In this document: piece by piece, positions 302 through 53,950 of the stretch
Layout: every line of letters starts with the position of its first letter
Position numbering within the stretch: position 1 is the stretch's first letter
Assembly (NCBI GenBank): GCA_038895675.1
Contig: JAWANB010000001.1
Span: forward strand, 31,443 to 95,442
Reading direction: 5' to 3'
DNA from: Candidatus Iainarchaeum sp.
GTDB taxonomy: Archaea; Iainarchaeota; Iainarchaeia; Iainarchaeales; Iainarchaeaceae
DNA: 64,000 nucleotides
Notes under the pieces: generated by a model
Seen by the model: only the letters and a program-made list of their open reading frames with translations
What the model was told of the DNA's origin: nothing
The model's database searches: none
Translations under genes and position numbers: made by a program

Positions 302-950
302 CCCAAATTTTTTTTTGAAATTTGTTTTCTTGCAGGAACTTTGAAGTTTGCCAAGACTTTCTAACAAAGTCAGGGAAATGATTATTCTTTAACAAATAAT
401 CATTTAAAAACTTAATCGTGATTTCATCATGACTATATCCAGAACCAAGGTCTCCAAATTTTTCAGAAATTTTTTTAATCTCCAAGTCTCTTTTAACTTT
501 TGCTATTATAGAAGCGGCTGAAACTATTGGATAATTTTTATCAGCTTTATGTTCTGAAACAATTTTGATATTGAATGGCAAATACTTTTTTATTCTTTTA
601 GCAAAATTGTCCATCACAACGTCAGGACTGTCAACATATACTATGCTTGGATTTTTACTGAGTTGAGAAATTAGTTTTGCAGCTTTCAACGCTTCTAACT
701 CATTCAACTTATTTTTTTCTACAAATTCATCTATTTCGCTCGGAGATACTATGATGAAGTTGTATTCCAACAAGTTTTTTTCAAGTATTGAATAAATTTT
801 TTCCCTTTCAATAGGCGTAAGCAACTTAGAATCTTTTACTCCAATTTCCAACAATTTATCTTCGTCTTTTTTTTCTATTACAGCAATTGCTAAAACCATT
901 GGCCCTATTACTGGCCCTCTTCCTGCTTCATCTATGCCTGCTATCAACAT
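270..950 (-). CDS. rnhB: Ribonuclease HII.
   Basis: N-terminal MLIAGIDEAGRGPVIGPMVLA is the canonical RNase HII catalytic motif (DEAGRG). The length is about 226 aa. The track ORF begins 7 codons earlier at 971; the conserved start is Met-8. Confidence 0.9.
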   Translation of the reverse strand: MLIAGIDEAGRGPVIGPMVLAIAVIEKKDEDKLLEIGVKDSKLLTPIEREKIYSILEKNLLEYNFIIVSPSEIDEFVEKNKLNELEALKAAKLISQLSKNPSIVYVDSPDVVMDNFAKRIKKYLPFNIKIVSEHKADKNYPIVSAASIIAKVKRDLEIKKISEKFGDLGSGYSHDEITIKFLNDYLLKNNHFPDFVRKSWQTSKFLQENKFQKKIWDGYVSLDKKK

Positions 951-989
951 AATATAAAGTAATAACAACAAGAAATAATAATAAGATTA

Positions 990-1472
990 TTAGTTTTGTT
1001 GTGATTTATTTTCAAGCGAAGTGCCAAAATACTCTTTAAATTTAGGTGTAGTAGTCAAAATAAAAGTTGTACCCTTTTTTTCTCTTTTAATAAAACCTTT
1101 TTCAAGCAAAGTAGAAATGTGGTCATAAGCCTTGTTATTTCTAAAATGAATTACTTCCGATTGCTTTACTGGTTGCTTATAAGCAATAAAAGCCAAAGTT
1201 TTTAACATTCCTTTATGCATTTCAGGTGCTGCTGCCAAATGGCTAACAAAATTCTCATAAAAAGGCTTGACAGCCATTTTTGCTCCTTCCTGGTTGTGTC
1301 TTATTTCAAGAGCTGTTTCTTTTGCATCATACTCATGAATAAGTTCGTTCAAAATTATTCTCGTTTCTGATATAGGCAGTGAAACTAACTTTGATAATTC
1401 TTCAATAGTCAAATAGTTTGGCGTAATAAACAAAGCAGCTTCAACAATCTTTTTTGCTTCCCTTTTATCCAT
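990..1472 (-). CDS. scpB: Segregation and condensation protein B (ScpB-like, winged helix).
   Basis: 160 aa. It starts MDKREAKKIVEAALFITPNYLTIEELSKL and has the second wHTH region KQPVKQSEVIHFRNNKAYDHISTLLEKGFI, which is typical ScpB architecture. Confidence 0.7.
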   Translation of the reverse strand: MDKREAKKIVEAALFITPNYLTIEELSKLVSLPISETRIILNELIHEYDAKETALEIRHNQEGAKMAVKPFYENFVSHLAAAPEMHKGMLKTLAFIAYKQPVKQSEVIHFRNNKAYDHISTLLEKGFIKREKKGTTFILTTTPKFKEYFGTSLENKSQQN

Positions 1473-1498
1473 AATCCAAAAACAAAAATGAAAAGAAA

Positions 1499-1906
1499 TT
1501 AAAACTCTTCTTTAAACTTTTGAAAATAACGCAAAGTCTCAGCCTTGACATTCTTATTGCAAACATGGTCATGGTGCCTGAAACCACCGCCAAAAGTCTT
1601 TGGAATATGCATTAACTCATGAACAATAGTTTCTATTTTTTCATTTTCACTTTGCTTGTCAAAGTTTTCTGAAATGAGTTCAATAACATAAAAGCTTTTT
1701 TGTTGATTCATACCTAACATTAAAACTTTGTTAATACAATGTATTCTCGCTATTGTTCTTCTTGCTTTGGAACCATAAGATCTAACTACTGAAAGTCTTT
1801 CAGGAATAATCCAATTATAATTGAGTTTTTCTGCAATTTCTTTTGCCTTTTCAGTCCATTGCTTGTCAAAAAAATACTTCATAAAAATCCAAAACACATG
1901 AAACAT
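1499..1906 (-). CDS. SprT/WLM-like zinc metallopeptidase domain protein.
   Basis: HExxH motif (IVHELMHIP) followed by a His/Cys-rich tail (GGGFRHHDHVCNKNV). About 135 aa. Confidence 0.5.
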   Translation of the reverse strand: MFHVFWIFMKYFFDKQWTEKAKEIAEKLNYNWIIPERLSVVRSYGSKARRTIARIHCINKVLMLGMNQQKSFYVIELISENFDKQSENEKIETIVHELMHIPKTFGGGFRHHDHVCNKNVKAETLRYFQKFKEEF

Positions 1907-1935
1907 TTAAATTATGTTCAACAATTAAAACCTTA

Positions 1936-2403
1936 ATGCCAATGAATAGAGGTTATAGAGGTCCAAGGGGAAGACTATTTAATACTCGAAAGCCACATTC
2001 ACAAAGAAAAAGAGAAGCACAAATAATATTAGAAAAATTTAAGAGAGCAATAAAATTGTTTAGTAGAACCCCTAAAAATGAAAATTTGGATATAATCCTA
2101 TTGGATATAATTTCTAAACAAGTATTAAGAAAAGCAAAAATAAACAAAAGAGAGGTGCTTGAATTTTTTGGTCAAAACTTAGCACTTACTTTTAGCATTT
2201 TAAATTCAATCAAGGCAAAGAAAAAAGAATTTACTCAGGGCCAAAACGAATTCTTAACTACTATGAAAAATGAAATCACTAACAGCAATTTAAGATTTTT
2301 TAAGGGTTTCTCTGAAACTGAACTAAATAATTTTTTAGTCAATTACTTTCAGTCAGTTTACGATTTAGAACAAGCTATTCAAAGATTAAGACAAGGTAAT
2401 TAA
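1936..2403 (+). CDS. Hypothetical protein with a basic disordered N-terminus.
   Basis: 155-aa ORF with an Arg/Lys-rich N-terminus (RGYRGPRGRLFNTRKPHSQRKRE). No recognisable domain. It is 2 nt upstream of the next gene. Confidence 0.4.
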   Translation: MPMNRGYRGPRGRLFNTRKPHSQRKREAQIILEKFKRAIKLFSRTPKNENLDIILLDIISKQVLRKAKINKREVLEFFGQNLALTFSILNSIKAKKKEFTQGQNEFLTTMKNEITNSNLRFFKGFSETELNNFLVNYFQSVYDLEQAIQRLRQGN

Positions 2404-2405
2404 AA

Positions 2406-2924
2406 ATGAAATTCAAACCATTATATTACATAGTTGTTGCATCAACCATCGATGGCTTTATTTCTTTTGATGAAGACTCTTTGCCTGATTGGACAAGCAA
2501 AGAAGACAAAAAGCACTTAAAGAAAATGGAAAACAAGGCTGACGTTTTACTCTTCTCAAGAAAAACCTACGAGCTTGCAAAAAAATTTGTTAAAAAAAAG
2601 AAGTGCATTGTTTTGACTTCTAAAGTCAAAAACTTTTTTGAAGAAAACAAATTTTTGACTTGGCTAAACCCAAAAGAGGCAAGTTTAGAGTCTTATGTTT
2701 CTTCTAAAGGTTATAAAAAAATTTGTGTTTTAGGAGGTCGAGGCGCTTACGACTTTGCAATTAAAAAAAACTTAGTTAAAGAAATTTATTTGACCATTGA
2801 ACCAATAATATTGGGCAAAGGAATAAGCATGTTTTCAACCTGCTTTAAAAAAAAATTCAAGTTAGTTTCCGTAAAAAAGTTGAATAACAAAGGTAGTATT
2901 TTATTGCACTATTCAAAATTATAA
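2406..2924 (+). CDS. Dihydrofolate reductase-like / RibD C-terminal domain family reductase.
   Basis: YYIVVASTIDGFISFDEDSLPDWTSKEDKKH...VLGGRGAYDFAIKKNLVKEIYLTIEPIILGKG matches the RibD_C/DHFR-like fold pattern. Confidence 0.5.
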   Translation: MKFKPLYYIVVASTIDGFISFDEDSLPDWTSKEDKKHLKKMENKADVLLFSRKTYELAKKFVKKKKCIVLTSKVKNFFEENKFLTWLNPKEASLESYVSSKGYKKICVLGGRGAYDFAIKKNLVKEIYLTIEPIILGKGISMFSTCFKKKFKLVSVKKLNNKGSILLHYSKL

Positions 2925-2929
2925 AAAGA

Positions 2930-3691
2930 TTATAAGCATCCAGCTGCTGCAAAGTCACGCGCTAGCACATTATAATTGTATTCAATATACCCCGTATTAC
3001 CAAAAGTTATTGTAAGCTTTAATTCACCAGGCCTATCACCTAAGAATATGAAAGGTGCAGAAGTTCTTGCAAGGTCTTTTTGGTATATTGAAGCAGTTTT
3101 ACCAGCTTTGGCTGAAAACTTGTAAGCGTTGTTAGTGCTTAAAGTATCAGTAGTATCTAATATTTGGGCTTTTATTGTGACAGGCTTTAAGTAACTGAAA
3201 TCAGTTTGACCAGTATTCTTAAAGTGTATTATTTTTATTCCAAGACCTCTTTTTCCTTCAAACTCTGGCGGACAAAAGAAAACTACTTCTTCTACTTTAA
3301 TATTATCTAACTTTGGTATTTTAGGTTCTTCAATTGGCTTTTGTTCACATTTACAAGATTTGCATACTTTATCATTACCGCAATCAGCATCAACTTCACA
3401 TTCTTCGTTAGCTTCTTTTACTTTATTCCCACACACTGGTGCTAATTCAACTTGAACCTTTTCTTCTGTATTTTCTGTAATTTCCTCACTACTAGTTTCA
3501 TTATTGCTAGTTTCACTATTGTTATTAACTACTTGAGCTTCATATATTGGTACAACTTGTTTATTTTCAACTACTTTATCATTAGTAAAAAATATTAAAA
3601 AACCAGTTATTGCAAGCACTCCCAAAAAAGCAAATACTAACAAAACTAACAATAAAGTTAATCCTATCAAAACAAGTTTGTCTCTATCCAT
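2930..3691 (-). CDS. Hypothetical membrane-anchored secreted protein with an acidic low-complexity segment and a Cys-rich module.
   Basis: N-terminal TM helix (LVLIGLTLLLVLLVFAFLGVLAITGFLIFF). Acidic Ser/Thr/Glu-rich linker. The Cys-rich block is CGNKVKEANEECEVDADCGNDKVCKSCKCE. Confidence 0.45.
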   Translation of the reverse strand: MDRDKLVLIGLTLLLVLLVFAFLGVLAITGFLIFFTNDKVVENKQVVPIYEAQVVNNNSETSNNETSSEEITENTEEKVQVELAPVCGNKVKEANEECEVDADCGNDKVCKSCKCEQKPIEEPKIPKLDNIKVEEVVFFCPPEFEGKRGLGIKIIHFKNTGQTDFSYLKPVTIKAQILDTTDTLSTNNAYKFSAKAGKTASIYQKDLARTSAPFIFLGDRPGELKLTITFGNTGYIEYNYNVLARDFAAAGCL

Positions 3692-3888
3692 GCTACTTAA
3701 AATTTACTTTGACTAAATATTTAAGGCTTTTTGTTTGTAAGGCTCTTTAAACTTCTTTTGTTTTTGACTTCAAAGTCTCTTTTAAGTCTTTTGTTTGTTT
3801 AAGCTCGCACCATACTCGTTTTAAAAGTCATTTTTAGGCTTTTAATTTTGCCATATTTTGTCATGCAAAAATTGCTTTTGTTCTAGTG

Positions 3889-4584
3889 TTAGCCGTATTT
3901 TTCAGTCTTTATCATTTCTTTAGGCACATTATTTTCAATTAATATTTTTTCAGTGTCTAAAACCATTGCTGGCGGGCCACATATAAAGTAATAACTTTCC
4001 TTGTTTTCTTCTACTATTTTTTTGATTAGTTTTGAATCTATTCTACCAAAGTAATACCCTTTCCTTTCTTCTCTACTCAGACAATACACTAATTTTATTC
4101 CTTTTATTTTTTTAGCAAATTCATCAAAATCATTTTTACAAATAATATCTTGCTCTGTTTTGTTCGAATAATACAAACTCACTTGAGTATCCAAGTTCTT
4201 GTCTAAAACGTATTGACAAAAACACCTAAAAGGTGCTATTCCAGAACCTGCAGCTAACAAAACTATTTTTTTCATTTTTTCAGGCTCAAACACAAAATGT
4301 CCCCAAGGACCATCCAACAAAAATTCTTCACCTAAAGGTGCAGTAGTCAATAGCTTTGACACATAACCTTCAGGCATTTGCTTTATCGTGAACTCTAAAA
4401 TACCTTTCCTTTCAGGAGAACTAGAACAAGAGTAAGACCTCTTTGGTATTTTTTCTTTTCTCAAGAATTCTATCATAAAAAATTGACCAGGCTTAAAATC
4501 AGGCCTTTCAGGACATTCAAAGGTTAAAGTGTAAGAGTCATGAGTCTCTTGTTTTACTTTCAAAAGCTTAGCCTTAAATTTCAT
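3889..4584 (-). CDS. FAD/NAD(P)-binding oxidoreductase, ferredoxin-NADP reductase-like (PyrK/HydG-like lacking a C-terminal Fe-S domain).
   Basis: FNR-like beta-barrel plus Rossmann fold. Motifs: RSYSCSS (the RxYS FAD motif), LLAAGSGIAPF (the GxGxxP NAD motif) and a C-terminal FICGPPAM. Confidence 0.65.
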   Translation of the reverse strand: MKFKAKLLKVKQETHDSYTLTFECPERPDFKPGQFFMIEFLRKEKIPKRSYSCSSSPERKGILEFTIKQMPEGYVSKLLTTAPLGEEFLLDGPWGHFVFEPEKMKKIVLLAAGSGIAPFRCFCQYVLDKNLDTQVSLYYSNKTEQDIICKNDFDEFAKKIKGIKLVYCLSREERKGYYFGRIDSKLIKKIVEENKESYYFICGPPAMVLDTEKILIENNVPKEMIKTEKYG

Positions 4585-4715
4585 GCAAAAGAAAAAAGTT
4601 AGACCTCTTTTTAATTTTATTTGTTAGCATTTAATTTTGAATTTTAACACGAGTTAATCGTTTTTAATAAGTATTATTATCCAATATTTATTTGGGATAA
4701 AAAGGAGGGAAAATT

Positions 4716-5321
4716 ATGCCATTTGCTTTACCAAAACTAAACTATGATTTTAATGCACTTGAACCATACATAGACGAACAAACAATGAGAATTCATTATG
4801 GAAAACACCATCAAGCTTACATTGACAAATTAAATGCCGCAATACTAAACACCAAATTTGAAAAAATGCCAATAGAAGACATACTAAAAGACTTAGAAAA
4901 AGTTCCTGCTGAAATAAGACAAACAATAAGAAACAATGGAGGAGGACACTACAACCATTCTCTCTTTTGGGAACTAATGAGTCCAAAAGGAGGAAAACTA
5001 ACTTCAACAATACAAAAAGCATTAGAGAACACTTTTGGCTCTTTCGAGTCCTTCAAAGAAAAATTCAAAAACGCAGGCCTAAATCAATTTGGATCAGGTT
5101 GGGCTTGGTTAGTAGTTTCAGACAAAAAACTTGAAATAATATCAACTCCAAATCAAGATAATCCTATTTCACAAAACAAAACACCAATATTAGGCGTTGA
5201 CGTTTGGGAACACGCATACTACCTAAAGTACCAAAACAGAAGAGCAGATTACTTAGAACAATTTTTCAACGTCATTAACTGGGAAAAAGTTGAAGAACTT
5301 TATAAAAAAGCACTCAAATAG
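4716..5321 (+). CDS. sodA: Fe/Mn superoxide dismutase.
   Basis: LPKLNYDFNALEPYIDEQTMRIHYGKHHQAYIDKLN...DVWEHAYYLKYQNRRADYL are classic Fe/Mn-SOD signatures. A strong RBS, AAGGAGGG, lies 8 nt upstream of the ATG. Confidence 0.95.
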   Translation: MPFALPKLNYDFNALEPYIDEQTMRIHYGKHHQAYIDKLNAAILNTKFEKMPIEDILKDLEKVPAEIRQTIRNNGGGHYNHSLFWELMSPKGGKLTSTIQKALENTFGSFESFKEKFKNAGLNQFGSGWAWLVVSDKKLEIISTPNQDNPISQNKTPILGVDVWEHAYYLKYQNRRADYLEQFFNVINWEKVEELYKKALK

Positions 5322-5370
5322 ATACCAAGATAAAAACCGCGCCTGAAATCCTCGAGCAACAGCAAATACT

Positions 5371-5411
5371 CAAACCAATTTTCCTCCTTTTAAAACATAT
5401 TCTTGGAACAT
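5371..5411 (-). repeat. Exact 41-nt copy of an internal coding segment of the gene at 5804..6754 (the segment at 6372..6412).
   Basis: On the minus strand this reads ATGTTCCAAGAATATGTTTTAAAAGGAGGAAAATTGGTTTG, encoding MFQEYVLKGGKLV and identical to codons 114-126 of the 316-aa gene. Here it sits in an intergenic position and runs into a TGA stop. Confidence 0.8.
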
Positions 5412-5446
5412 TTAAAGAATACAAAGACGCAAAAAAACCAGAAAAA

Positions 5447-5713
5447 TTGTATAAAACGTTCAAAATACAAGTCTTTGCAGAAAGCCTTTTAGTAAAAGAA
5501 TTGTTCAAATATTCTGTTCCATATGCGTTCATCAAATTCGAGCAGACAGGAGACCTTGTCAAAGTGAAAATCAAAGAAGAAGAATTATTGCAAGTAAGAG
5601 AAACAATTCAAAAAATAAATCAAATAATTCAAATAGAAATAATGCCAGACCCAACACCATTTATAAGGCGATGCAAAGATTGTGGTTATTTTAAGATTTG
5701 CAGAAGGGCATAA
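5447..5713 (+). pseudogene. Remnant ORF whose C-terminus has a Cas4/RecB-family nuclease-type CX2CX5C motif. Likely a degraded gene fragment.
   Basis: The frame is open from 5393 with no ATG, and the track uses a TTG start. The C-terminus is ...IMPDPTPFIRRCKDCGYFKICRRA. The C-x2-C-x5-C spacing is the Fe-S cluster motif that ends Cas4 and DUF83 nucleases. There is no room upstream for a nuclease core, because sodA ends 70 nt away. Confidence 0.3.
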
Positions 5714-5739
5714 ATTTGAAAGGAAAACTTTTGATTCTT

Positions 5740-5769
5740 ATGACTACGTTGGTTAGTCATGACTTTTTG
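5740..5769 (+). terminator. Hairpin followed by an oligo-T run.
   Basis: ATGACTA cgttggt TAGTCAT is a 7-bp perfect stem with a 7-nt loop, followed by GACTTTTTG. It lies just 3' of the 5447..5713 frame on the plus strand. Confidence 0.4.
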
Positions 5770-5803
5770 AAAAAAATAGTATAACTATTAAAAATTAAAG
5801 AAA

Positions 5804-6754
5804 TTATTTGTAAAGCATTCCATAATAAAGATTTTCAATTATGCCCCAATAAGTCTGTCTTTTTCCAGTTTCAGCATCAATAGGCATTTTATCACTAACT
5901 AAGTACTCTGGCGGGAAAGCATAATAAGCTACTCTGCCTCCAACTCCTGAAGTCACTATTATTGGAAAACTCTTTCCAAAATTTTGAGTTTTGCTTTCAA
6001 GCCAAGCATGATCTGCCTTTCCAACAAGATTAAAACCATAGTCAAGGTAAGCAGAAGACTTTTGATAAGCTAATTCATTTAAATTAACAATCGAAAAATC
6101 ACCATAAAGAGGCAATTTTTGGCTTAAACCATACGAAAGCTTATCACCAGAATCAACAAAATTTATATATCCTGCCAAGTCATTGCCTTTACATTCAGTT
6201 AATTCACACCTATTAGCAATAAATTGCACACCAAGTGTATAATCAAACGAAATTTGTTTTTCTCCTTCTTTTCTCGCCCAAGGCCCCAAATAAGCATCCT
6301 TTCCACCTTTTTTTCTTTCCGACTCAAGCAAAAGCTCTTCTTCTTTAGCAATAGTACCAGCATCACCTATCCAAACCAATTTTCCTCCTTTTAAAACATA
6401 TTCTTGGAACATGATCAACTCATCAACACTAATCTCTTTTGCTCTTTCTACTATGACTAATTGATACTCTTGCAACAAGGGCAAAGAAACAGATTCCAAG
6501 TCAATTAACTTGACCCTTGCAGAAATTCTCGGAGAACGCAAAACCTCGGCTAAAAAAAATGGATTTCCTAGACCTTCATCACCATACACTATTAACACTT
6601 TAGGTTTGCCACCTGCAACTATACTATAATAAACATCACAACCAAGCTCACTATAAAAACTACATGGCACTATGTTAAAATAAACGAGAGAAACACCAAG
6701 AACAATTAATAGTATTACCAAAACTACTAATTTTACTAACAAATTAGAGTTCAT
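5804..6754 (-). CDS. Membrane-anchored extracytoplasmic protein of a conserved paralogous family (see 59311..60258). Function unknown.
   Basis: N-terminal TM. Blocks shared with the paralogue: GCDVYYSIVAGGKPKVLIVYGDEGLG, YQLVIVERAKEIS...GGKLVWIGDAGT, LGPWARKEG...SFDYTLG, GVGGRVAYYAFP and a C-terminal LYYGMLYK. It is the last gene of the giant surface-protein operon. Confidence 0.6.
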   Translation of the reverse strand: MNSNLLVKLVVLVILLIVLGVSLVYFNIVPCSFYSELGCDVYYSIVAGGKPKVLIVYGDEGLGNPFFLAEVLRSPRISARVKLIDLESVSLPLLQEYQLVIVERAKEISVDELIMFQEYVLKGGKLVWIGDAGTIAKEEELLLESERKKGGKDAYLGPWARKEGEKQISFDYTLGVQFIANRCELTECKGNDLAGYINFVDSGDKLSYGLSQKLPLYGDFSIVNLNELAYQKSSAYLDYGFNLVGKADHAWLESKTQNFGKSFPIIVTSGVGGRVAYYAFPPEYLVSDKMPIDAETGKRQTYWGIIENLYYGMLYK

Positions 6755-6889
6755 ACTAAAACAACAGATTTAGACAATTAAAGCTTTTCTAATGTCGATA
6801 AGATTTGGAATCGTTGACAATTTTTAGCATAATTAGAGTGGTTGCAAATAATGTTTATTGATAATATGCTTAAAAAGTTCTAATTTCTT

Positions 6890-9800
6890 TCAATTATTAT
6901 AGCATTTATTCACTTCTATTCCTTCTATGTTGTTGATTTTAGTTCTCAAATCTTTCACTAACTTTGATTCATTCCACCATAAACCAGTTCCAATAGGTAT
7001 CAAAGTATTTCCCTGCCTGATGCTGCTGTTTGCTATGCATGCTCTTTCTTCTTGTATTTGTTCTATTGCTTCTGAAAAAGTTTTTACTGAGTTAGTAGGT
7101 ATTTCAAAAGTGTATTGGGAATTGTTTTTTATTTCAACAAAACCAATTATGTTTCCTCGTGAATCCAATTTAGCAAGATAAATTTTTCCTGCGCTCAAGC
7201 ATGCGTTCTTTAATATCAGTCCTTCTGAATTTGGGTAGAACATTGTTTCAAAAAGTATTGTGGCATTGCTTTGTCTTGCAAAACCATAAAGTTTTTGGAA
7301 AATGTTAGCTCTTTCAAAAGTACACCATGGCTCAGTTAAATTGCTTTCTCTTTCTCTATCAGTGCCAATGCTAATTGGCAAAACTGCTCTTGTTTCTGCA
7401 TCTTGGCATTGTGTTTGTGCATTTATTGGCTTGTATGCTGACTCAACTAATTTTGCAAGGTAAGCTCCTGTGTTTATGTTTCCTCTTGTTGTGTCAGATA
7501 TAGAATAAGAGACTGCTGTAAAACCAGTGTTTGGTTCTGGTTGAGCTAATAATACTGCCGGAAATGGTGTTGAAGGAGAAAAGTAAACTTCGTAAGTGTT
7601 TTCTTCGCCGTCTTTTTTTGTAATATTAAGCAAGTTTCCCGCAGTGTTTTTTTGAGTATCTATAAAATTTTTGCCAATAGTTATTTCAAGCCATGCTACT
7701 GGAGTACTTTCACTTTTTGTTTCACGTGTTTCTACTGAATGTGAAGCACTTTTACTACTTATTATTATTTTTTCTCCTTTAAATCCTAACCCATAGCCAT
7801 TTCTCAAATATTTTCCATCTTGTTGCAATCCTAATTCAGCATCGAAAGGTAACATGTACAAAATATTAGGTTCTAAGTCGTTTATTTTTTCAAGGTTTAT
7901 TGTGATTTGAGCTTTAGGGTTATTTAACGCATCAAAAAATTCCCAAGCACTCCCTCTAAACTCCATTATTATGTTGACACGATAAATTCCTGGCTCGTGA
8001 ACTTGTTTTCCAAGTTCAATATTATTGTTTTTGCTAAACCTTAAGTTTGTGGGATTAGAAAAATATTTTTTCCACTTTGTGTTATAACTTTGGTCTAATG
8101 TAAAAAACTTTTGTGAATAGTATTCATCCCAATCTCTCATAAATTCGTTTGAAAAGCCATCTTTCATTAGATACGCATTAAAAGAGGTTTTTGAATTGGC
8201 TTCTTCCAATTTGTTTTCAGAAGCAAGTTGTTCTATGTTTTGAAGTCTTTTCAGTAATGAAAGCATAAATTGAGTTGAATCACATACAATTGGATTATTA
8301 GGATTACTGCATGTTTGTTCAGTTATGTTGTTAGGTTGCCAGTCATACAAAACTTTTGGCATTGCTTCTCTTCCTGTTGTTGCAAAATTGTTTTGTTGGC
8401 CTCTTATAAGACTTCCTTCCAAATTTTTGCATAATCCGACGTTTGTTGAGTTAATTCCTATCATGAATCTTTCTTTGTCAATCCAAAATAATTTTAAGTC
8501 GAATTCTTTAATTGGTCTTGGATCGTTTTCAGTGTAAGCTGTTTTAGCATAAGCGTTAAATCCTTGGTTTCCTTGGGTTGTGTTCTGTACTACAAAGATT
8601 TCTGTTTTTCCTCCTGAAAAACTTTTAACAGGGCCTGGGTTGGTAAAGGTTCCTTCTGGGCTAGTTATAGTTATGTCTGTCATGGTGTATGTTATTGGGC
8701 TACTGCTATCTGGCGATTCTGAAAGTTGTGGCGAAAAAAATCCTAATGGTTTAGTGCCTTCAAATGCGTTTACCTTACTGGTTACTATTTGTTGTTGTGT
8801 TGAATTAACTATTCTTTGTGGACCTAAACTCATGTTAAGCACAGAATTTTCTGTTTTTAACAGTTGAGTCGTATTGTCAAATTCAGAGCTCAAGTTTACT
8901 CTAACAAAGTCACTTTTATAACTACCTTCAATACCAACAATTCCAAACACTTCATAATAATAGGTTTTTTGTCCAGCTCCTGAAACTGAAAATCTTGTCA
9001 AACCACCTTCAGAGTTAAGTAATCTTAATGCGTTGCTGTTAGTGCAATCACTTATAGAATGAAATCCAGCAGTGGCAACCAATGCGCCTGTTTCGTCAAA
9101 AATATTTGCTGTAAAAGCTGGTTGATCATACAACGAATTGTTTGGTGAATCCGTGCAAGTTTGGATCAAGTATTCTTTTCCTCCTTCAACGACAAATTCG
9201 CCTCTTTTTCTATAAGGGAATAGTGCAAAGGCGTGAGGTCTAAAAGAGACAGAGACATCAACCGGTTTTAGGCCGAAACTAAGGTCGTATTCTTTTTGGG
9301 TTATGTCAGTGAATTTAATATTCAAGCCGGCTTTAGTTGTTTCAGGAGAACTTCTCGGCAGTTTTGCAACAAATTTTTCAAGCAACAAATAACTTTTTCC
9401 GGCTTCTATTGTGATTTCGTTGTTCATTGCTTCAAAATCAGGGAAAGAACAATTTTGTTTCAAACCTTCAGCACATTGTGTATCATAAACTCCAATAATT
9501 TTTATGTCTAAAGGTCCTTTGTTTAATATTTCCCATCTCATGCTTTTTTCTGCTGAATTTTCTATCTCATAAACGTTTTTTTGAAGACCAAAAATAGACT
9601 TGTCAGGAGCTAAGACTTCAACGTCACTTGGACCAACAATCACATCAAATTCCTTGTACAAACCCCATTCACTAGCGTTAGTAGTTTTTTGGTATTCTAT
9701 TCTTAAAGTATAAATTCCTTTAGAGTTGAAAGTATAAGCGTCAAAAGACCTTTTGTCTCCAACAACAGCATTTCTAATTCCATCACATCTGCACACTTCA

Positions 9801-10165
9801 TAATTTTTTACTGAATAATTGCCAGAAGTCTCAACAAAACTATCGCTTTTTTTTTCAAGCACTCTTACTGCTAAAGGATTGTCTTTTGAAGCTCCATCAA
9901 TACAGTGCAAAGTATATTCATTTATATTCTCTAACCTTAGCTTAGTACCAGGACTAACAACATAAGTTTCTCTTTGAGAATTTTGAAGTGGAATAGCCGA
10001 TGGTGTGAAAGTCATTTGCATTGTTACAGATGGAATAGGTTCGTTGCCAGTATAAGGTTTTGTACCCCAATAATGGCAATGAGACCCACCACAAGTTTGA
10101 ACCCCGAAAGTCAAAGAAGAAAAAACAAAAACAATAATAAAAAAAACAAAGTAATAGGTTCTCAT
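6890..10165 (-). CDS. Giant secreted or surface protein (1091 aa), hypothetical.
   Basis: N-terminal signal/TM segment (MRTYYFVFFIIVFVFSSLTFG). Many N-x-S/T sequons. No C-terminal anchor. Its start overlaps the upstream gene by 4 nt (ATGA). Confidence 0.6.
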   Translation of the reverse strand: MRTYYFVFFIIVFVFSSLTFGVQTCGGSHCHYWGTKPYTGNEPIPSVTMQMTFTPSAIPLQNSQRETYVVSPGTKLRLENINEYTLHCIDGASKDNPLAVRVLEKKSDSFVETSGNYSVKNYEVCRCDGIRNAVVGDKRSFDAYTFNSKGIYTLRIEYQKTTNASEWGLYKEFDVIVGPSDVEVLAPDKSIFGLQKNVYEIENSAEKSMRWEILNKGPLDIKIIGVYDTQCAEGLKQNCSFPDFEAMNNEITIEAGKSYLLLEKFVAKLPRSSPETTKAGLNIKFTDITQKEYDLSFGLKPVDVSVSFRPHAFALFPYRKRGEFVVEGGKEYLIQTCTDSPNNSLYDQPAFTANIFDETGALVATAGFHSISDCTNSNALRLLNSEGGLTRFSVSGAGQKTYYYEVFGIVGIEGSYKSDFVRVNLSSEFDNTTQLLKTENSVLNMSLGPQRIVNSTQQQIVTSKVNAFEGTKPLGFFSPQLSESPDSSSPITYTMTDITITSPEGTFTNPGPVKSFSGGKTEIFVVQNTTQGNQGFNAYAKTAYTENDPRPIKEFDLKLFWIDKERFMIGINSTNVGLCKNLEGSLIRGQQNNFATTGREAMPKVLYDWQPNNITEQTCSNPNNPIVCDSTQFMLSLLKRLQNIEQLASENKLEEANSKTSFNAYLMKDGFSNEFMRDWDEYYSQKFFTLDQSYNTKWKKYFSNPTNLRFSKNNNIELGKQVHEPGIYRVNIIMEFRGSAWEFFDALNNPKAQITINLEKINDLEPNILYMLPFDAELGLQQDGKYLRNGYGLGFKGEKIIISSKSASHSVETRETKSESTPVAWLEITIGKNFIDTQKNTAGNLLNITKKDGEENTYEVYFSPSTPFPAVLLAQPEPNTGFTAVSYSISDTTRGNINTGAYLAKLVESAYKPINAQTQCQDAETRAVLPISIGTDRERESNLTEPWCTFERANIFQKLYGFARQSNATILFETMFYPNSEGLILKNACLSAGKIYLAKLDSRGNIIGFVEIKNNSQYTFEIPTNSVKTFSEAIEQIQEERACIANSSIRQGNTLIPIGTGLWWNESKLVKDLRTKINNIEGIEVNKCYNN

Positions 10166-11892
10166 TCAAACTCACCACTATAAGAATTTCTTTTTCTGAC
10201 TATTAAATAAACGCCTACAATAAAAATGCCTAACCCAATGGCTAAAATCATTAAAACAAAATTATTGTTTTGAACATCTTGCGATTTATCATTAACACTT
10301 ATTATTTTGCCTTCATTTTCGTTGCAAAAACCAAGACAGCACTTAGTGTTATTCACTTCAACGATTGTGCCAGAGCATTCAGCATTACATTCAACAGCAC
10401 CTAAAGCACTACAACTTTGCAGTACTTCTTTTTTTACTGAAATTTTTTCAGATATTTGTGTCCTATTTAAAAAGTCGTCAACTATGTACAAATAATCGCC
10501 TTCTAAAGCTCTCAAATATTCTTGCTTACATGAAACGCCTTCAACTTTAAATGCAGACAATTCAGAGCCAGTACTCAAATCTATTATAGTAAGTTTAGCA
10601 TTCAAATCTTGCTTTTCGTTTTTTTCGTTGAAACCGCATAATTCAAAAAACAATTTTTCGTCTATATCAGAATAGGTTGCCTTTACTTCTACTCTTCCTT
10701 TTGGTGATATGTTTTCTTTTATTGGTTTTACTTCATAACAATAATAATCGTAAATAACGGAATTTTTTTCTATTTTAGCACAAACCAAAAAGTTCTCAAT
10801 ATTTTTTGTAGAAACAAAGTCAAAGTCGAGACTTAAAAATTCGTCATAAAAACCAAGTTTTTCTATTTGTTTTTCTTTTGAAAAAATTTTTTCGGTGCCA
10901 ACAATGGCTTCGATTATTACTTTAAAATCTGAGAAATCAGGGTAAGTATAGTGGTCTGGGCTTGAGCCAATAAGGACTGATAAATAATTGCCTTTAAAAT
11001 CTAATTTCCAAATTCTTGCAGTACCACCCTTTACTATCAATCTGTTTCTGTATAGAGCCAAAAGGTTTCCTTTTTCGTTTTGAATCTCTATTCTAACAGC
11101 ATAAGCACTTGGAATTTCAGGGGCAATTAATTTTAGTTCTATAGATTTTTCAGAATTAGGGCTAATCGTAAATTCTGAATTTACTTCTGAAATAAACTTG
11201 TTTTGTGACAAACAAATTGTGTCATCCCAATCGCACAATTTCACCACAACAATGCCTTTTTGTTCTGACCTTGAAAAGTTTTTTACGAAAACAATACCTT
11301 TGACTTCTTCTTTTGGCATTACTGGAGCACCTATAGGCCCAGCAATTCCATTAAATGTTGTTTTTTCATAATCTATGCTTAAGTCTGGTTTGTTCCCTTT
11401 GCCTAACACTTCAAATTCTAAACTTTTAGGGCTACTAAAAATATGTACAATGCCAACAGCTGGAATTCTTCCATTTTTAAAGTAAGCATCAAGAGTATAA
11501 GTTCCTTTTTTTAAGTCTCTCGGCAAGTCAATTTCAAACTTCACATCGATAATAGCCTTAGGAGGTAAAGCTACTGGAAGTACTTTTTCATAAATTATTG
11601 TGCCTTCCCCGTCTTTTATAACAGAAAATTGCGAAGGATAACTCAAACTATTTTGATTGCCTTTTACGACCTCTAAAACTAAATAGCCGTCATAGAGTGC
11701 AAAATCTTCAAAATTAGTTATTTTTGCTGTTCCTTTCACTTTTTCATTTTCATTGAAAACGTTTTTCTCCAAACTTATTTGCATGTCTATGTTATAATTA
11801 TAAGATGCTAATGACAAATTTAAAAAAAATAATAACATAAAAGCAATTAACACTGGTTTGAAAAAATTTGTAACTCTACTTTTTGAAATCAT
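10162..11892 (-). CDS. Type-I membrane surface protein (576 aa) with a Cys-rich stalk and a C-terminal TM anchor.
   Basis: N-terminal signal sequence. Cys-rich segment CSALGAVECNAECSGTIVEVNNTKCCLGFC. C-terminal TM FVLMILAIGLGIFIVGVYLIVRKR. It overlaps both neighbouring genes. Confidence 0.6.
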   Translation of the reverse strand: MISKSRVTNFFKPVLIAFMLLFFLNLSLASYNYNIDMQISLEKNVFNENEKVKGTAKITNFEDFALYDGYLVLEVVKGNQNSLSYPSQFSVIKDGEGTIIYEKVLPVALPPKAIIDVKFEIDLPRDLKKGTYTLDAYFKNGRIPAVGIVHIFSSPKSLEFEVLGKGNKPDLSIDYEKTTFNGIAGPIGAPVMPKEEVKGIVFVKNFSRSEQKGIVVVKLCDWDDTICLSQNKFISEVNSEFTISPNSEKSIELKLIAPEIPSAYAVRIEIQNEKGNLLALYRNRLIVKGGTARIWKLDFKGNYLSVLIGSSPDHYTYPDFSDFKVIIEAIVGTEKIFSKEKQIEKLGFYDEFLSLDFDFVSTKNIENFLVCAKIEKNSVIYDYYCYEVKPIKENISPKGRVEVKATYSDIDEKLFFELCGFNEKNEKQDLNAKLTIIDLSTGSELSAFKVEGVSCKQEYLRALEGDYLYIVDDFLNRTQISEKISVKKEVLQSCSALGAVECNAECSGTIVEVNNTKCCLGFCNENEGKIISVNDKSQDVQNNNFVLMILAIGLGIFIVGVYLIVRKRNSYSGEFE

Positions 11893-14800
11893 TGACGCTC
11901 ACCAAGAAAAAATTATTTGAAACTCTTATAGGCCTAATATCATAAGTCTGTTCACTGTAAAAATTTTGTGGATTCTTAGTTTCGTTAGTCAAGGTAAAAT
12001 ACAATGATTGATTCAAGTTGTTAGATCCAAGGTCCACTTTCGGATTTTCGTTATCTGAAAAACCAGTATAACACTTGTTTATTACTTTTACAATTTCTTT
12101 TGACTCAGAAAAGTCAAGCAAAACTCTTTTCGTGTTAGTATTATTCACAACTCTTTCAAGGCTTAAGCACGAATTGTTTGTTGTTGCTATTGCAAGTACA
12201 AACCCCAAATAAAATTCTCTTTGATCTTTTTTTGCATTTAAAAATATTGGATGAACTCCCAATTGTTTACCTTGAGTAATGCTCACTACTTCGGTTGCGT
12301 TATTCGATAACGTGAAATTAGTTTTTGAAATACTTATATCGCTTTCAGCGGCTTTTGACAATTTTATTTCCACTTCAGACCCACAATTATCATTTTTTAT
12401 GGTTATATTAACAGGCGTAGCATTACAAGAAGTGCCATTACAATTTCTTGAATTAAGCTCTATTTCAGTATTGGAAGGACTTTGCTCATCAACTTTTATG
12501 CACTCTAAACTAGGTTGAGTTGGTAAAAGAACTTCTTGTTGTGTTACTCTTAATTCTTTTGTTGCGCTAACATAATTATCTTTAGATGCAACAACCTCAA
12601 AAGTAGTTGAAACAGCATAACTTTGTGGAAAAATTATAGTGAATTGTCCTTGGCTATTTGTTTGGCCACCAATATTTAGTTTTGTTTTACTTTCACCTTC
12701 TTTTTCGAATACTTCTATTAATGCACCTTGTAAGGCTCTATTAGCGTTGTCCTTTGTAGTGGCAATGACAATTTCATTAGGCTGTGGTTTTATTGTGTCT
12801 TTATCTAAAGTCAAAAACAACTGGTTTAATGCTGAAATACTAAACAACATTTCTGCTTCTTTTCCTCTTTCTTCAACATTTAAGCTCATTTTTAGTTTTA
12901 TTGAATTAACTGGTTTCAATGCTGTTAATGTTAAGTTTAAAGTAGCTGTTTGATTAGGCGAAAGTCTACCTATTGAACCACTATTTGGAGTTATTTGTAT
13001 TGGGTTAGGATTTATAGTAGGTTCAATAGTGAAAGACATTTGAAGGTTTTCAAAAATTTTTTTAGTAGAATTCAATACTTCTATTGCTATGTCATATTGT
13101 TCATTTTCTCTTAATTCAATAGTTCCTTCGAGTGCATCACGCCATTCTCTAATATGACCATTTTGAGAGGATTTTATTTTAGCACTAATCAAAAATCCAC
13201 AATTACTAGTGCAAAAAGAAGAATTCAAAAAAGTAGTCCACAAGTAAAGCGAATTCCTGTTAGGCTTGTATTCTTCGTTATCGCCTTTCTTGGTTTTAAT
13301 TCCATACCTTAATTCTACTTTAGTGTTATTTTCTTGAGTATCTTCAACTTCCTTTATGAAAACATTAGCAAACACTATGTAGACACCATCATCAGCCGAG
13401 TTCAAAGACAAAATAGCTTGTTTCGCATCATTGTCCGTTGGAGAACAATCCTCATAATTGTTTTGGGGATTAAAGCAAGATGAATAAATAACGTTTAGGT
13501 TTGGTGAATCTATTCTTTTTATAACCATTGTGGAATTGTTTGCATTCAATTGATTTTCTAAGCTCGTCCTAATAACTGCTTTTACGTCGCTTTTTTCCGC
13601 TCTATCTACTATAAGATTAAATTTGAAGACATAGTTTTTGTTATCTTCAAGTCTTGAAACTTCTCTTCCAGAAGTATCTAAAACTTTGTCAAGAAGTATT
13701 TCAGCAGGCTTGAATTGTTGATTTTCAGGAATTGCTTTTAAAACAATTTCTATTGATTGAGTCGCATTAGGCAAAATTCTTACACTAGGATGCCTAGTAG
13801 TATAATAACCTTGTTTGCTAACCACTATCATTGGACTTTTATCTGCTGAAAACTCTTTTTTTTGCGTCCTGCCTTGTGCATTAGTAGTTTCTCTGCCAAT
13901 TTCTCTATTGTTTTCAACAAAAGAAACTGAGGCACCTTGTACAGGCCTATTGCTTTCATCAACGACCTTCACTTCAATAAAGCCATTTGAAATTACCAAA
14001 ACTATTTCTAACTGAATTTCACTACCTTTAGACAAAGATTTTTCTCCTGAAAAATTAGAATGCTCTTTGCCATTAATTTCTTTCAATGCTTTTGCTTTAT
14101 AATTTCCAGGCGGCAAATTAATGAATTCTATTAAGCCGTCTTTGTCTGTAAGTCCATCAGCAATAGGAAAAGAAAAGGCAGAAGAATAAAGAAAAACAGA
14201 AGCGTTTTGAACTTTGTTGCCTCCGTATTCAGAAACTATTACTTTAGCTTTGCCTGAATTATTTGAAGTTACCTTGTCTAACTTTACTATAGTAGGTTGA
14301 TTATTATTTGCAAACTTCAAATTATTAATTACTTTTAGCACATAATTAGGATGCGAAGCTATTACTAAGTATGCTTTTTCTTCTAAGCTAAGATTCTGAA
14401 AGTTGACTATTCCATCATTGTTTGACCTCAAAGAAACACTCTGTCTATTATTGGCTATTAATTGTGCAAAAACATTACTAATAGGATTGTCATTGCTTGA
14501 ATCAACAAATTTGATTAAAATTTTTTTAGCACTGTCTGTTTTTTTCATTCTTATTTCAACAGTATAAGGTTGATTTGAAGAAAATTGAGCATCAGCAATA
14601 GTGAATTCGTCGCTATAAGCAATACCATAAGTACTTCCAGAAGGAGGTCTTGCTTCAATAACATAAGTGCCAGCACTTACGTTTTCTACTATTTTAGAAC
14701 CTGAGTTGTCCGTCGTCCCGCCTTGGAAAGCAATTACTTCTCCTTTCAAGAAAGTCAAGTAAACTCCACTAATTGGCTGAGAAGTATCATGGTCCTTTAC

Positions 14801-15601
14801 TAATACTCTTACATTAGCAAGCAAAATTTCTTTTCTCAAATTCACTATAACAGTCCCTTCAGTAATCGCTAAGTCTATTGTCTTTCTAGTCTCTTCAAAG
14901 CCGCTTGCCCTAACCAAAGCAACCAAAGTTCCGCAAGCAGATTGCACGCTTACCCTATGAATTGCTCCTTTAGAATTAATGTTTGCAGGAACATACTTTG
15001 AATCAGAACAAGAAAAACTAATCGAGACAGAAGTGTTAGAACTAATTAGGCCTTTTTCATCTCTTAACTCATAAACTATTTGCTTGAGTTTTGAACTAAC
15101 AGATTTTTCAAGAGTAATTTTGTATAACTTTCTTGGCTCTATTTTAATTTCTTCTTCAAATGGCTTAAAGCCACTTGCTTTGACAGAAACTTTTGCTTTG
15201 TCCCCAAACAATTTAATTTTTGCTTCACCAAAAGAGTTTGTAGTCATACTTTCCTTAGCACTACCAACTTCAACTATTATTTCAGCGTTTTGAATTGGAT
15301 TTTCAGAATTATCCATTACCACTATTTTTGCACTATTATCTCCTGACCAAAAAGAAAAAAGTGAGGCAATCAGAGACCAAATAGCTTTTGAAATAGGTTC
15401 AAGAGGCCCTCCTTGATTACCAAAAAAAAGCAAAAGAATGAAAAAAAAGAGCAGGAAAACAAAAATTAAAACTAATACAAAAGAAGGAAAAACTCGGTCT
15501 ATTGGGTCAATTATTCTATACACAGGTATTTTTTCGTTAATTTTATCAAGGAATTCGTAATAGCGATCCTCAAAAAAATAATAAAAATCCTTCAATTCCA
15601 T
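11876..15601 (-). CDS. Giant surface protein (1241 aa) with multiple CarboxypepD_reg/transthyretin-like (PEGA-like) beta-sandwich repeats and an N-terminal TM anchor.
   Basis: N-terminal TM (FVLVLIFVFLLFFFILLLFF). Repeated modules of the type AKIVVMDNSENPIQNAEIIVEVG...SFGEAKIKL, KVQNASVFLYSS...DGLTDKDGLIEFINLPPGNYKAKA and VKVVDESNRPVQGASVSFVENNREIGRETTNAQG. Sequons are abundant. Confidence 0.65.
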   Translation of the reverse strand: MELKDFYYFFEDRYYEFLDKINEKIPVYRIIDPIDRVFPSFVLVLIFVFLLFFFILLLFFGNQGGPLEPISKAIWSLIASLFSFWSGDNSAKIVVMDNSENPIQNAEIIVEVGSAKESMTTNSFGEAKIKLFGDKAKVSVKASGFKPFEEEIKIEPRKLYKITLEKSVSSKLKQIVYELRDEKGLISSNTSVSISFSCSDSKYVPANINSKGAIHRVSVQSACGTLVALVRASGFEETRKTIDLAITEGTVIVNLRKEILLANVRVLVKDHDTSQPISGVYLTFLKGEVIAFQGGTTDNSGSKIVENVSAGTYVIEARPPSGSTYGIAYSDEFTIADAQFSSNQPYTVEIRMKKTDSAKKILIKFVDSSNDNPISNVFAQLIANNRQSVSLRSNNDGIVNFQNLSLEEKAYLVIASHPNYVLKVINNLKFANNNQPTIVKLDKVTSNNSGKAKVIVSEYGGNKVQNASVFLYSSAFSFPIADGLTDKDGLIEFINLPPGNYKAKALKEINGKEHSNFSGEKSLSKGSEIQLEIVLVISNGFIEVKVVDESNRPVQGASVSFVENNREIGRETTNAQGRTQKKEFSADKSPMIVVSKQGYYTTRHPSVRILPNATQSIEIVLKAIPENQQFKPAEILLDKVLDTSGREVSRLEDNKNYVFKFNLIVDRAEKSDVKAVIRTSLENQLNANNSTMVIKRIDSPNLNVIYSSCFNPQNNYEDCSPTDNDAKQAILSLNSADDGVYIVFANVFIKEVEDTQENNTKVELRYGIKTKKGDNEEYKPNRNSLYLWTTFLNSSFCTSNCGFLISAKIKSSQNGHIREWRDALEGTIELRENEQYDIAIEVLNSTKKIFENLQMSFTIEPTINPNPIQITPNSGSIGRLSPNQTATLNLTLTALKPVNSIKLKMSLNVEERGKEAEMLFSISALNQLFLTLDKDTIKPQPNEIVIATTKDNANRALQGALIEVFEKEGESKTKLNIGGQTNSQGQFTIIFPQSYAVSTTFEVVASKDNYVSATKELRVTQQEVLLPTQPSLECIKVDEQSPSNTEIELNSRNCNGTSCNATPVNITIKNDNCGSEVEIKLSKAAESDISISKTNFTLSNNATEVVSITQGKQLGVHPIFLNAKKDQREFYLGFVLAIATTNNSCLSLERVVNNTNTKRVLLDFSESKEIVKVINKCYTGFSDNENPKVDLGSNNLNQSLYFTLTNETKNPQNFYSEQTYDIRPIRVSNNFFLVSVNDFKK

Positions 15602-52738: not shown

Positions 52739-53950
52739 ATGCCAAACTTTTCCAATATTGCACCAATCATAGGCTTAATAACCATAGCCATAATTGTTTC
52801 AACCATATACTATGGAGACTTTTTAGGTGTAAAAAATGTTTTTCAAATAACTGCATTTATTACCGCTAATTTTTCAAGCACTCCAAGCACTTTTTACCCA
52901 ACTATTTCACCAATAACTTTACAAAGCATAAGCATAAGCCGTTCTACTACCACTAGCCCAACCACAACAACACAACCAACACAAACCACAACACCAAACC
53001 CAACCACAACAACACAACCAACACAAACCACAACACCAAACCCAACCACAACAACACAACCAACACAAACCACAACACCAAACCCAACCACAACAACACA
53101 ACCAACACAAACCACAACACCAAGAATAAATAATAAACCAATAATAGTGATAGTAGATCCAACCTATAATTCCGTTTATACTGAAACAGATAAAATAACA
53201 GTTCAAACAGAAGTATTTGACTTTGAAAACAATGTAAGCTTTGTTGAATTCTTCTTAAATGATCAACTTATCTCAAAAGATGAAACATCGCCATATTCAA
53301 TTACATTAGAAAATTTGAAAGAAGGGATTTATGAAATAAGTGCAATAGCAACAGATCAACTAGGGTTAAATAGCAAGTCAAACATAGTTAAAATAGAAAT
53401 ACAAAAACAAAGAAGAACAACACAAAGTCCAAGACCAACAACAAGTACACCACAACCAACACAAAGCGTTCAACGAAAAACATGGGAAAGAGAATCTAAT
53501 AACAAATTATCTCCAGACAAACCATTAGTAATAATTACTAAACCAGATGCAGGACAAAAATTTTTTATTAACCAAACTTTTGAGTTTGAAGCCGAACTAA
53601 GACCAAAAGACTTCAACATAGAAAAAATGGAATTTTACATTAATGAAAAACTAATAAACACAGACTATGAGGCTCCATATTCAATAGAATATTCTGAAGA
53701 CAAATTAGGAGTATATACGTTAAGGGCGGTAGCAGTCTATGAAAAAACCCAAACTGCTTTTTCAAAACCAACGTGGATAACAATAACAAATCCAGAACAG
53801 CAAAAGCAAACAAAATCAATTTTAGAAATACCATTTATTGAAAATGGAAAAAAACAAGAAGAAAAGCAAGAACAAAATATTGTTAAAGAAGAAAAAAAAT
53901 ACAATTCTATACTTGACTTTATAATAGACTACTTACTAAAACTAATTTAA
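52739..53950 (+). CDS. Surface protein with a mucin-like Thr/Pro/Gln tandem-repeat linker and two Ig-like domains.
   Basis: N-terminal TM. About four 14-aa repeats (TTTTQPTQTTTPNP). Two homologous roughly 90-aa domains (…SPYSITLENLKEGIYEISAIATD… and …APYSIEYSEDKLGVYTLRAVAVY…). Confidence 0.6.
   Translation: MPNFSNIAPIIGLITIAIIVSTIYYGDFLGVKNVFQITAFITANFSSTPSTFYPTISPITLQSISISRSTTTSPTTTTQPTQTTTPNPTTTTQPTQTTTPNPTTTTQPTQTTTPNPTTTTQPTQTTTPRINNKPIIVIVDPTYNSVYTETDKITVQTEVFDFENNVSFVEFFLNDQLISKDETSPYSITLENLKEGIYEISAIATDQLGLNSKSNIVKIEIQKQRRTTQSPRPTTSTPQPTQSVQRKTWERESNNKLSPDKPLVIITKPDAGQKFFINQTFEFEAELRPKDFNIEKMEFYINEKLINTDYEAPYSIEYSEDKLGVYTLRAVAVYEKTQTAFSKPTWITITNPEQQKQTKSILEIPFIENGKKQEEKQEQNIVKEEKKYNSILDFIIDYLLKLI
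52957..53124 (+). repeat. 4 x 42-nt perfect tandem repeat encoding TTTTQPTQTTTPNP, inside the CDS.
   Basis: The unit cccaaccacaacaacacaaccaacacaaaccacaacaccaaa is repeated head-to-tail. Confidence 0.85.

Follow-up and report, generated by a model that had tools for sequence, protein, structure and literature searches.

In Cas4, the Fe-S cluster serves as a structural staple and requires four cysteines, of which one is N-terminal (PMC3466216), and the full catalytic set is described for all members of the family (PMC5704561). Solo-Cas4 genes are likewise full length, displaying all nuclease motifs and the four cysteines (Hudaiberdiev et al. 2017, PMC5704561).

In this work, we analyzed a stretch of DNA of 64,000 nucleotides (hereafter the window, 64 kb) from a Candidatus Diapherotrites archaeon, a member of the DPANN group, in which one short open reading frame had been read from the letters alone as the 3' fragment of a lost Cas4-like or viral nuclease gene. 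Our results indicate that positions 5417-5713 very probably correspond to a 5'-truncated and non-functional remnant of a CRISPR-associated cas4 gene, that is, to a scar left by CRISPR DNA that was either lost or imported, located between two housekeeping genes of this tiny archaeon. The features of the locus are collected in Table 1.

Table 1. Features of the cas4 remnant and its surroundings (positions in the window; aa, amino acids).
Feature	Position	Strand	Basis
Fe/Mn superoxide dismutase (SOD) gene, 201 aa, intact; left flank	4716-5321	+	ORF
49-nt spacer after the SOD stop; no T5 tract	5322-5370	+	sequence, T-tract scan
41-nt patch identical to part of the coding sequence of the 316-aa gene; left edge of the junction	5371-5411	.	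repeat family D6, DNA comparison
5-nt junction TTAAA, from the patch to the first recognisable cas4 codon	5412-5416	.	DNA comparison, eight relatives
3' remnant of cas4, 98 codons + TAA	5417-5713	+	tblastn, Pfam, TIGRFAM, alignment
AU-rich hairpin 5738-5762, then T5 5764-5768	5738-5768	+	fold, T-tract scan
T7 tract downstream of the convergent 316-aa gene	5770-5776	-	T-tract scan
316-aa gene, intact, convergent; right flank	5804-6754	-	ORFs
Source of the 41-nt patch within the 316-aa gene (codons 115-128)	6372-6412	-	

Retained and missing parts of the cas4 gene

On the forward strand, the frame that ends at TAA 5711-5713 is open from 5309 in the translation of the window, and reads ...ILGTFKEYKDAKKPEKLYKTFKIQVFAESLL...IMPDPTPFIRRCKDCGYFKICRRA. 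The mechanical ORF within it comprises 88 aa from TTG 5447 and, as the original prediction had stated, lacks an ATG start, the only in-frame ATG being found at 5642. The candidate starts that precede this ATG in frame are limited to TTG, GTG and ATT/ATA/ATC codons, with neither an ATG nor a GTG start near the 5' end of the remnant. An earlier start at 5393 had also been proposed; this position is in frame, but it constitutes an arbitrary coordinate, since the frame is open from 5309. The NCBI gene calls on identical DNA begin at ATT 5399 (104 aa) or ATA 5318 (131 aa), both non-canonical, and the exact protein is deposited from MAGs of Candidatus Diapherotrites archaeon under the label "Dna2/Cas4 domain-containing protein", with the truncation unflagged.

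The C-terminus, ...IMPDPTPFIRRCKDCGYFKICRRA, displays the exact C-x2-C-x5-C spacing typical of Cas4 that had first drawn attention to the frame, and comparison with Cas4 profiles extended the similarity well beyond the cysteines. Pfam PF01930 (Cas_Cas4) matched with 36.5 bits (E 6.6e-9; cut-off 22.7) over profile positions 66-158 of 160, and TIGR00372 (cas4) with 58.7 bits (E 6.4e-16) over positions 86-179 of 180, this last score falling under its cut-off of 65 because half of the profile is matched. In tblastn searches of the window with full-length relatives, residues 84-181 aligned to 5417-5710 with 65-68% identity (E 1e-34 to 1e-38), and no other region of the 64 kb was aligned. Over the retained half, the identity to full-length Cas4 relatives ranges from 59 to 84%.

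An alignment of the fragment with 15 full-length members of the clade (alignment A2) was used to establish which motifs are present. Those retained are motif III, an ExK occurring as EYK at 5417-5425 with the invariant K86 conserved; the Q motif KIQVFAESLL, with the invariant Q101 conserved; and the C-terminal CX2CX5C, occurring as CKDCGYFKIC, whose C169, C172 and C178 are invariant in the alignment. The motif II Asp (D69, within LDCLxID in the clade) is absent from the fragment, whose alignment begins at column 86, and the N-terminal Cys (Y2/C3 region) falls in the missing part, no further Cys being found in the fragment beyond the triad. The earlier reading had pointed out that no space is left upstream for a nuclease core. 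There is indeed no room for the N-terminal half, as the SOD gene ends at 5321, but the ExK and Q core motifs persist. Judged from its sequence, the remnant cannot be a Cas4 nuclease, because the catalytic Asp motif and the fourth, N-terminal cysteine are missing.

Junction, flanking genes and terminator

The left flank of the remnant is the SOD gene, and matches to Pfam Sod_Fe_N and Sod_Fe_C were obtained on the identical gene of another MAG contig (L001). Right after the SOD stop, at 5336-5362, lies a GC-rich patch, CCGCGCCTGAAATCCTCGAGCAACAGC, in a genome of ~30% G+C. By eye this patch is similar to the 37-nt repeats of CRISPR arrays in relatives; as a CRISPR-repeat relic it was discarded, for an HMM built from ten repeat consensus sequences of relatives was silent on it even at E<1000.

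The exact 41-nt repeat that had been noticed upstream of the ORF was recovered, and ends 35 nt before TTG 5447. Rather than a neighbouring feature, it looks like the junction itself, a rearrangement junction with a templated patch copied from the adjacent gene. The homology to cas4 starts at 5417, only 5 nt past the end of the 41-mer at 5411; at the junction position eight relatives read ...TT(T/C)CC(A/C)AT(A/T) GAATA..., whereas here position 5411 is followed by TTAAA and then by GAATAC.... To the left of the patch, the match to the donor falls to 8 of 14 nt, and further out there is none. The donor stretch encodes MFQEYVLKGGKLV, a motif that is conserved in the homologues of the 316-aa protein; therefore, the 316-aa gene is the donor, and 5371-5411 the derived copy. 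If SOD transcription reads through the site, the resulting 3' tail would include a 41-nt stretch (5371-5411, forward strand) able to pair without mismatch with the mRNA of the 316-aa gene, which we designate accidental trans-antisense pairing.

Other readings of the repeat were discarded. As att sites of an integrated element, the two copies would delimit a 1-kb segment in which only the remnant and two thirds of an intact host gene are found; to the left of the first copy the 316-aa gene is not continued, and neither an integrase nor a tRNA is found nearby. Ectopic spacer integration was set aside as well, the 41-mer being devoid of a flanking duplication. The footprint of an integrated element that the original prediction had contemplated thus lost its ground, as nothing around the fragment resembles such an element.

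The 316-aa gene closes an operon of four genes conserved in Diapherotrites archaea (1241, 576, 1091 and 316 aa; 5804-15601, reverse strand), whose proteins are almost without Pfam matches. The gene order is kept in the nearest relatives found for the flanking operon, the Diapherotrites MAG contigs L011 and L012, with homologues 54-58% identical, and 111 homologues of the 316-aa protein were found. A paralogue of this gene is located at 59314-60246 on the reverse strand (311 aa, 43% identical), and does not contain the 41-mer. Elsewhere in the window, a perfect tandem repeat of four 42-nt units at 52957-53123 encodes a Thr/Pro-rich linker, PTTTTQPTQTTTPN, inside a 403-aa ORF (52739-53950) whose product is probably a surface protein.

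Transcription termination in archaea mainly needs a T tract. The ORF had been described as followed by a clean hairpin plus a T5 terminator; both elements are present, but the hairpin is AU-rich and has one bulge among its 10 pairs (3 G-C and one G-U; fold z-score -1.5), and a consensus terminator scan made no call at 5738-5768. This element is probably the own terminator of the cas4 gene, and its T5 (5764-5768) is the first such tract downstream of SOD. On the reverse strand, T7 and T5 tracts facing the cas4 terminator serve the convergent operon, and together with the forward T5 constitute a two-way termination zone.

The remaining parts of a CRISPR-Cas system were searched for throughout the window. 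With the proteins of relatives as tblastn queries, the best match for cas1 and cas2 in the 64 kb had an E-value of 0.9, and no match was obtained in it for a Cas12f-like effector or for the N-terminal half of cas4. A protein search with this N-terminal half yielded 5 matches, none of them from this organism, a weak negative given its clearly low recall. Neither TRF nor an 18-mer spacing scan detected a CRISPR array in the window, and the best match of the repeat HMM (E 1.8) was elsewhere in it. The syntenic position was explored in related genomes for an intact nuclease, cas genes or an array, and none was found: a scan of genome contigs with the 316-aa protein was negative, and the synteny with L011 and L012 ends downstream of the conserved operon, where they contain no cas genes.

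Intact and truncated relatives

Relatives of the fragment were surveyed in representative genomes and metagenomes, with searches anchored on C-terminal peptides. The full-length forms, of ~185-199 aa, outnumber the short ones and are consistently the last gene of cas1-cas2-cas4 modules in other DPANN archaea, this order being found in L003, L013-L017, L021-L025, L027, L028, L030, L031 and L036. Arrays with 37-nt repeats are located directly upstream of cas1 in nine of these (L014-L017, L021, L022, L025, L027 and L028), and the module adjoins Cas12f-like effectors in L003, L027, L032, L035 and L037. The effector of L003 matched NCBIfam Cas12f2 with an E-value of 2e-53, below the cut-off of that model, and showed PDB matches to Cas12f and TnpB. 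Since no relatives were found in viral contigs (IMG/VR) and the nearest relatives are CRISPR-linked, a viral origin was discarded; of the two ancestries considered in the original prediction, Cas4 is the one supported by the profiles, the tblastn alignments and the CRISPR-linked relatives.

Some of these modules display particularities. L003 is the only relative with effector, cas1, cas2 and cas4 together within ~10 kb; a frameshift divides its cas4 (7774-8363) into two ORFs, of 71 and 120 aa, and no CRISPR array was detected within the 10.4 kb examined. The MAG to which L012 belongs carries its cas module (L014) on a separate contig. In L014, from a Candidatus Iainarchaeum MAG, a type III-like restriction-modification pair, consisting of an N6/N4 methylase and a ResIII helicase, is placed between the array and cas1-cas2-cas4 (742-4691).

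Short ORFs of 104-139 aa, with non-ATG starts and unrelated upstream genes, were also identified among the relatives. Their 5' breakpoints are located at about codon 28 (L026), codon 43 (L009) and codon 68 (L005/L006/L007 and L033/L034), as compared with codon 84 in the window. A conserved small protein of this length in relatives had been named as the finding that would speak for a genuine small Fe-S or zinc-ribbon protein; with at least four different 5' breakpoints and differing neighbours, no such family is observed. One case is that of L005, cut at codon 68, and L024 (1-2394), which contains an intact cas1-cas2-cas4 next to a convergent 256-aa gene. From the breakpoint on, both sequences are 99.8% identical, and the same 256-aa neighbour is present in L005, so that on this comparison the two loci are a direct before-and-after pair.

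Upstream of the break, L005 (1-3856) carries a 171-aa gene and a DUF7557/VapB-like gene, and its left junction recurs in L006/L007 and L033/L034 with different right-hand sequences; L033/L034 show a second break after about codon 136. The comparison of these five loci with L024 points to recombination, through homology in cas4, of a variable or mobile segment. L026 (690-1270) and L009 (1-690) are 99.7% identical from cas4 codon 43 on, their upstream DNA being unrelated, and L026 keeps cas4 from about codon 28, beside an M24-peptidase-like gene; either stepwise erosion or a chimeric contig would account for this pattern. L020, a contig placed in a bacterial (Ignavibacteriales) bin, contains at 7941-8252 codons 20-91 of a Micrarchaeota cas4 (L019/L004) within unrelated sequence; chimerism of the contig or mis-binning is the probable cause. 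Because the searches were anchored on C-terminal peptides, ascertainment bias accounts for at least part of the apparent excess of 3' over 5' remnants, and L020 does provide a piece from the N-terminal side.

The dN/dS between the remnant and its nearest relative is 0.06, a value uninformative on function because dS is saturated between all lineages, so that it reflects their history as intact genes. With this low ratio and the frame still open, no sign of decay since truncation is perceived, which fits a recent event and equally continued selection.

Origin of the remnant and comparison with known systems

According to the reading that we prefer, the intact ancestor would have been a gene of ~185-199 codons, the last in an array-cas1-cas2-cas4 module, often adjoining a Cas12f-like effector, and a full CRISPR-Cas locus would formerly have occupied this site. 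A single rearrangement may have removed the rest of cas4 and whatever lay upstream, leaving the codons from ~84 to the end and the T-rich terminator of the gene joined to the 3' flank of SOD. This event would have been either a deletion repaired with a template switch or the capture of a DNA fragment, with the 41-nt patch copied from 1 kb away. The remnant is most likely inactive as a protein, and would just be transcribed as a 3' untranslated tail of the SOD mRNA down to 5764-5768. Such a read-through to the old cas4 terminator is probable because there is no T5 before 5764, and the use of this terminator by SOD would provide a simple, passive reason for a deletion endpoint located upstream of it. 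Against this explanation count the 98-codon frame, which is still open, the dN/dS of 0.06 with its lack of signs of decay, and the annotation of a protein on the frame by NCBI. Moreover, between SOD and the 316-aa gene no intact CRISPR-Cas locus is seen in any sufficiently close relative, L011 and L012 being non-syntenic downstream of the operon, so that a former in situ locus is no more than putative.

The latter point leaves room for a different history, possible although rather unlikely, in which the repair of a break involved the capture, between SOD and the operon, of a foreign piece of ~390 nt made up of the 3' end of a relative's cas4 and its terminator. The fragment would be equally dead under this possible but doubtful course of events, the 41-nt patch having been copied in the same event, and no CRISPR-Cas locus would ever have been resident at this site. 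The lack of cas or array relics anywhere in the 64 kb is in line with it, as are the housekeeping flanks, the short SOD-operon spacing that results when the fragment is subtracted, the different, cas-free sequence that follows the operon in L011 and L012, and the position of the L014 module on another contig of the L012 MAG. Against the capture, the site displays no anomaly in G+C or skew, the low G+C of the fragment being that of its surroundings; cas4 is terminal in the module, and a locus deletion that stops before the next needed gene would naturally leave exactly such a piece; and the L024/L005 pair indicates that truncation in situ does happen in the clade. We also weighed whether the junction could be an assembly artefact, with contigs mis-joined at the shared 41-mer, since a repeat of 41 nt is within the range of de Bruijn k-mers and chimeric contigs such as L020 occur in this data space. 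This is extremely improbable: the same junction with both repeat copies in the same order is present in two other MAG contigs (L002, 100% identical, and L001, with 3 SNPs and a scaffold gap), and five NCBI MAG accessions list the truncated protein; therefore, it is no one-off misassembly. In addition, traversing the repeat along its only other path would break up the conserved 316-aa gene, and the truncation of cas4 is independent of the repeat, its N-terminal half being nowhere in the window.

The open frame raises the question of whether a small protein is still functional here, with a C-terminal mini-domain of Cas4 binding a metal through its three cysteines and another ligand. We regard this as very unlikely; its possible roles, for instance as a decoy, as a dominant-negative partner for Cas1 or in the binding of DNA ends, are just as hard to credit. 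The intact frame, the dN/dS of ~0.06 between lineages, the NCBI protein call and the recurrence of truncated open ORFs in L005, L006, L007, L009 and L026 are consistent with such a protein. Nevertheless, the 5' breakpoints number at least four (about codons 28, 43, 68 and 84), none of the ORFs has an ATG start, and all upstream genes differ; dS is saturated, and divergence between still intact genes accounts for the low dN/dS; the coding part of L005 is identical to that of the intact allele L024; the fragment lacks both the catalytic Asp and the fourth ligand of the cluster (PMC3466216); and the recurrence of 3' remnants owes part of its weight to ascertainment. It is scarcely credible that the remnant is retained for a use, either as expressed mini-proteins that interfere with Cas4-Cas1-Cas2 or partly substitute for it, or as an antisense SOD tail coupling SOD to the operon, the support for both versions being limited to the open frame and the geometry.

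With the integration of these findings, the truncated cas4 gene is best regarded as an ordinary pseudogene relic with a tidy junction anatomy, and as a further instance of a known phenomenon. It marks past contact between this Diapherotrites lineage and a CRISPR adaptation module of the type that adjoins Cas12f-like effectors in DPANN archaea; along with the remnants in relatives, it points to modules repeatedly lost or broken in small genomes, with the 3' end of cas4 left as the scar. It also calls for caution regarding automated counts of "solo Cas4", in which half genes could be included.

When compared with the DPANN remnants of L005/L006/L007, L033/L034, L009 and L026, the fragment in the window is likewise 5'-truncated, with its 3' end intact and no cas1 or cas2 upstream, differing from them in the breakpoint and in the upstream genes. 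Templated insertions are known at deletion junctions, where they arise through template switching or microhomology-mediated repair. The patch described here resembles them in being an exact short copy from a source 1 kb off, in the same orientation and precisely at the breakpoint, whereas its edges are without clearly readable microhomology. To our knowledge, the repair pathways of DPANN archaea are uncharacterised. With the array-cas1-cas2-cas4 modules (PF01930/TIGR00372), the locus shares the ExK, the Q motif and the C-terminal Cys triad, as well as the position of the stop codon and T-rich terminator at the module end; in contrast to them, the window holds codons ~84 to the end only, devoid of the N-terminal Cys and motif II Asp, and no cas1, cas2, effector or array is nearby. 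Finally, as in the solo-Cas4 and MGE-Cas4 genes (PMC5704561), a sequence of the Cas4 family is found outside any CRISPR-cas locus, although in this case it corresponds to half a gene, and its nearest relatives are CRISPR-linked rather than viral.
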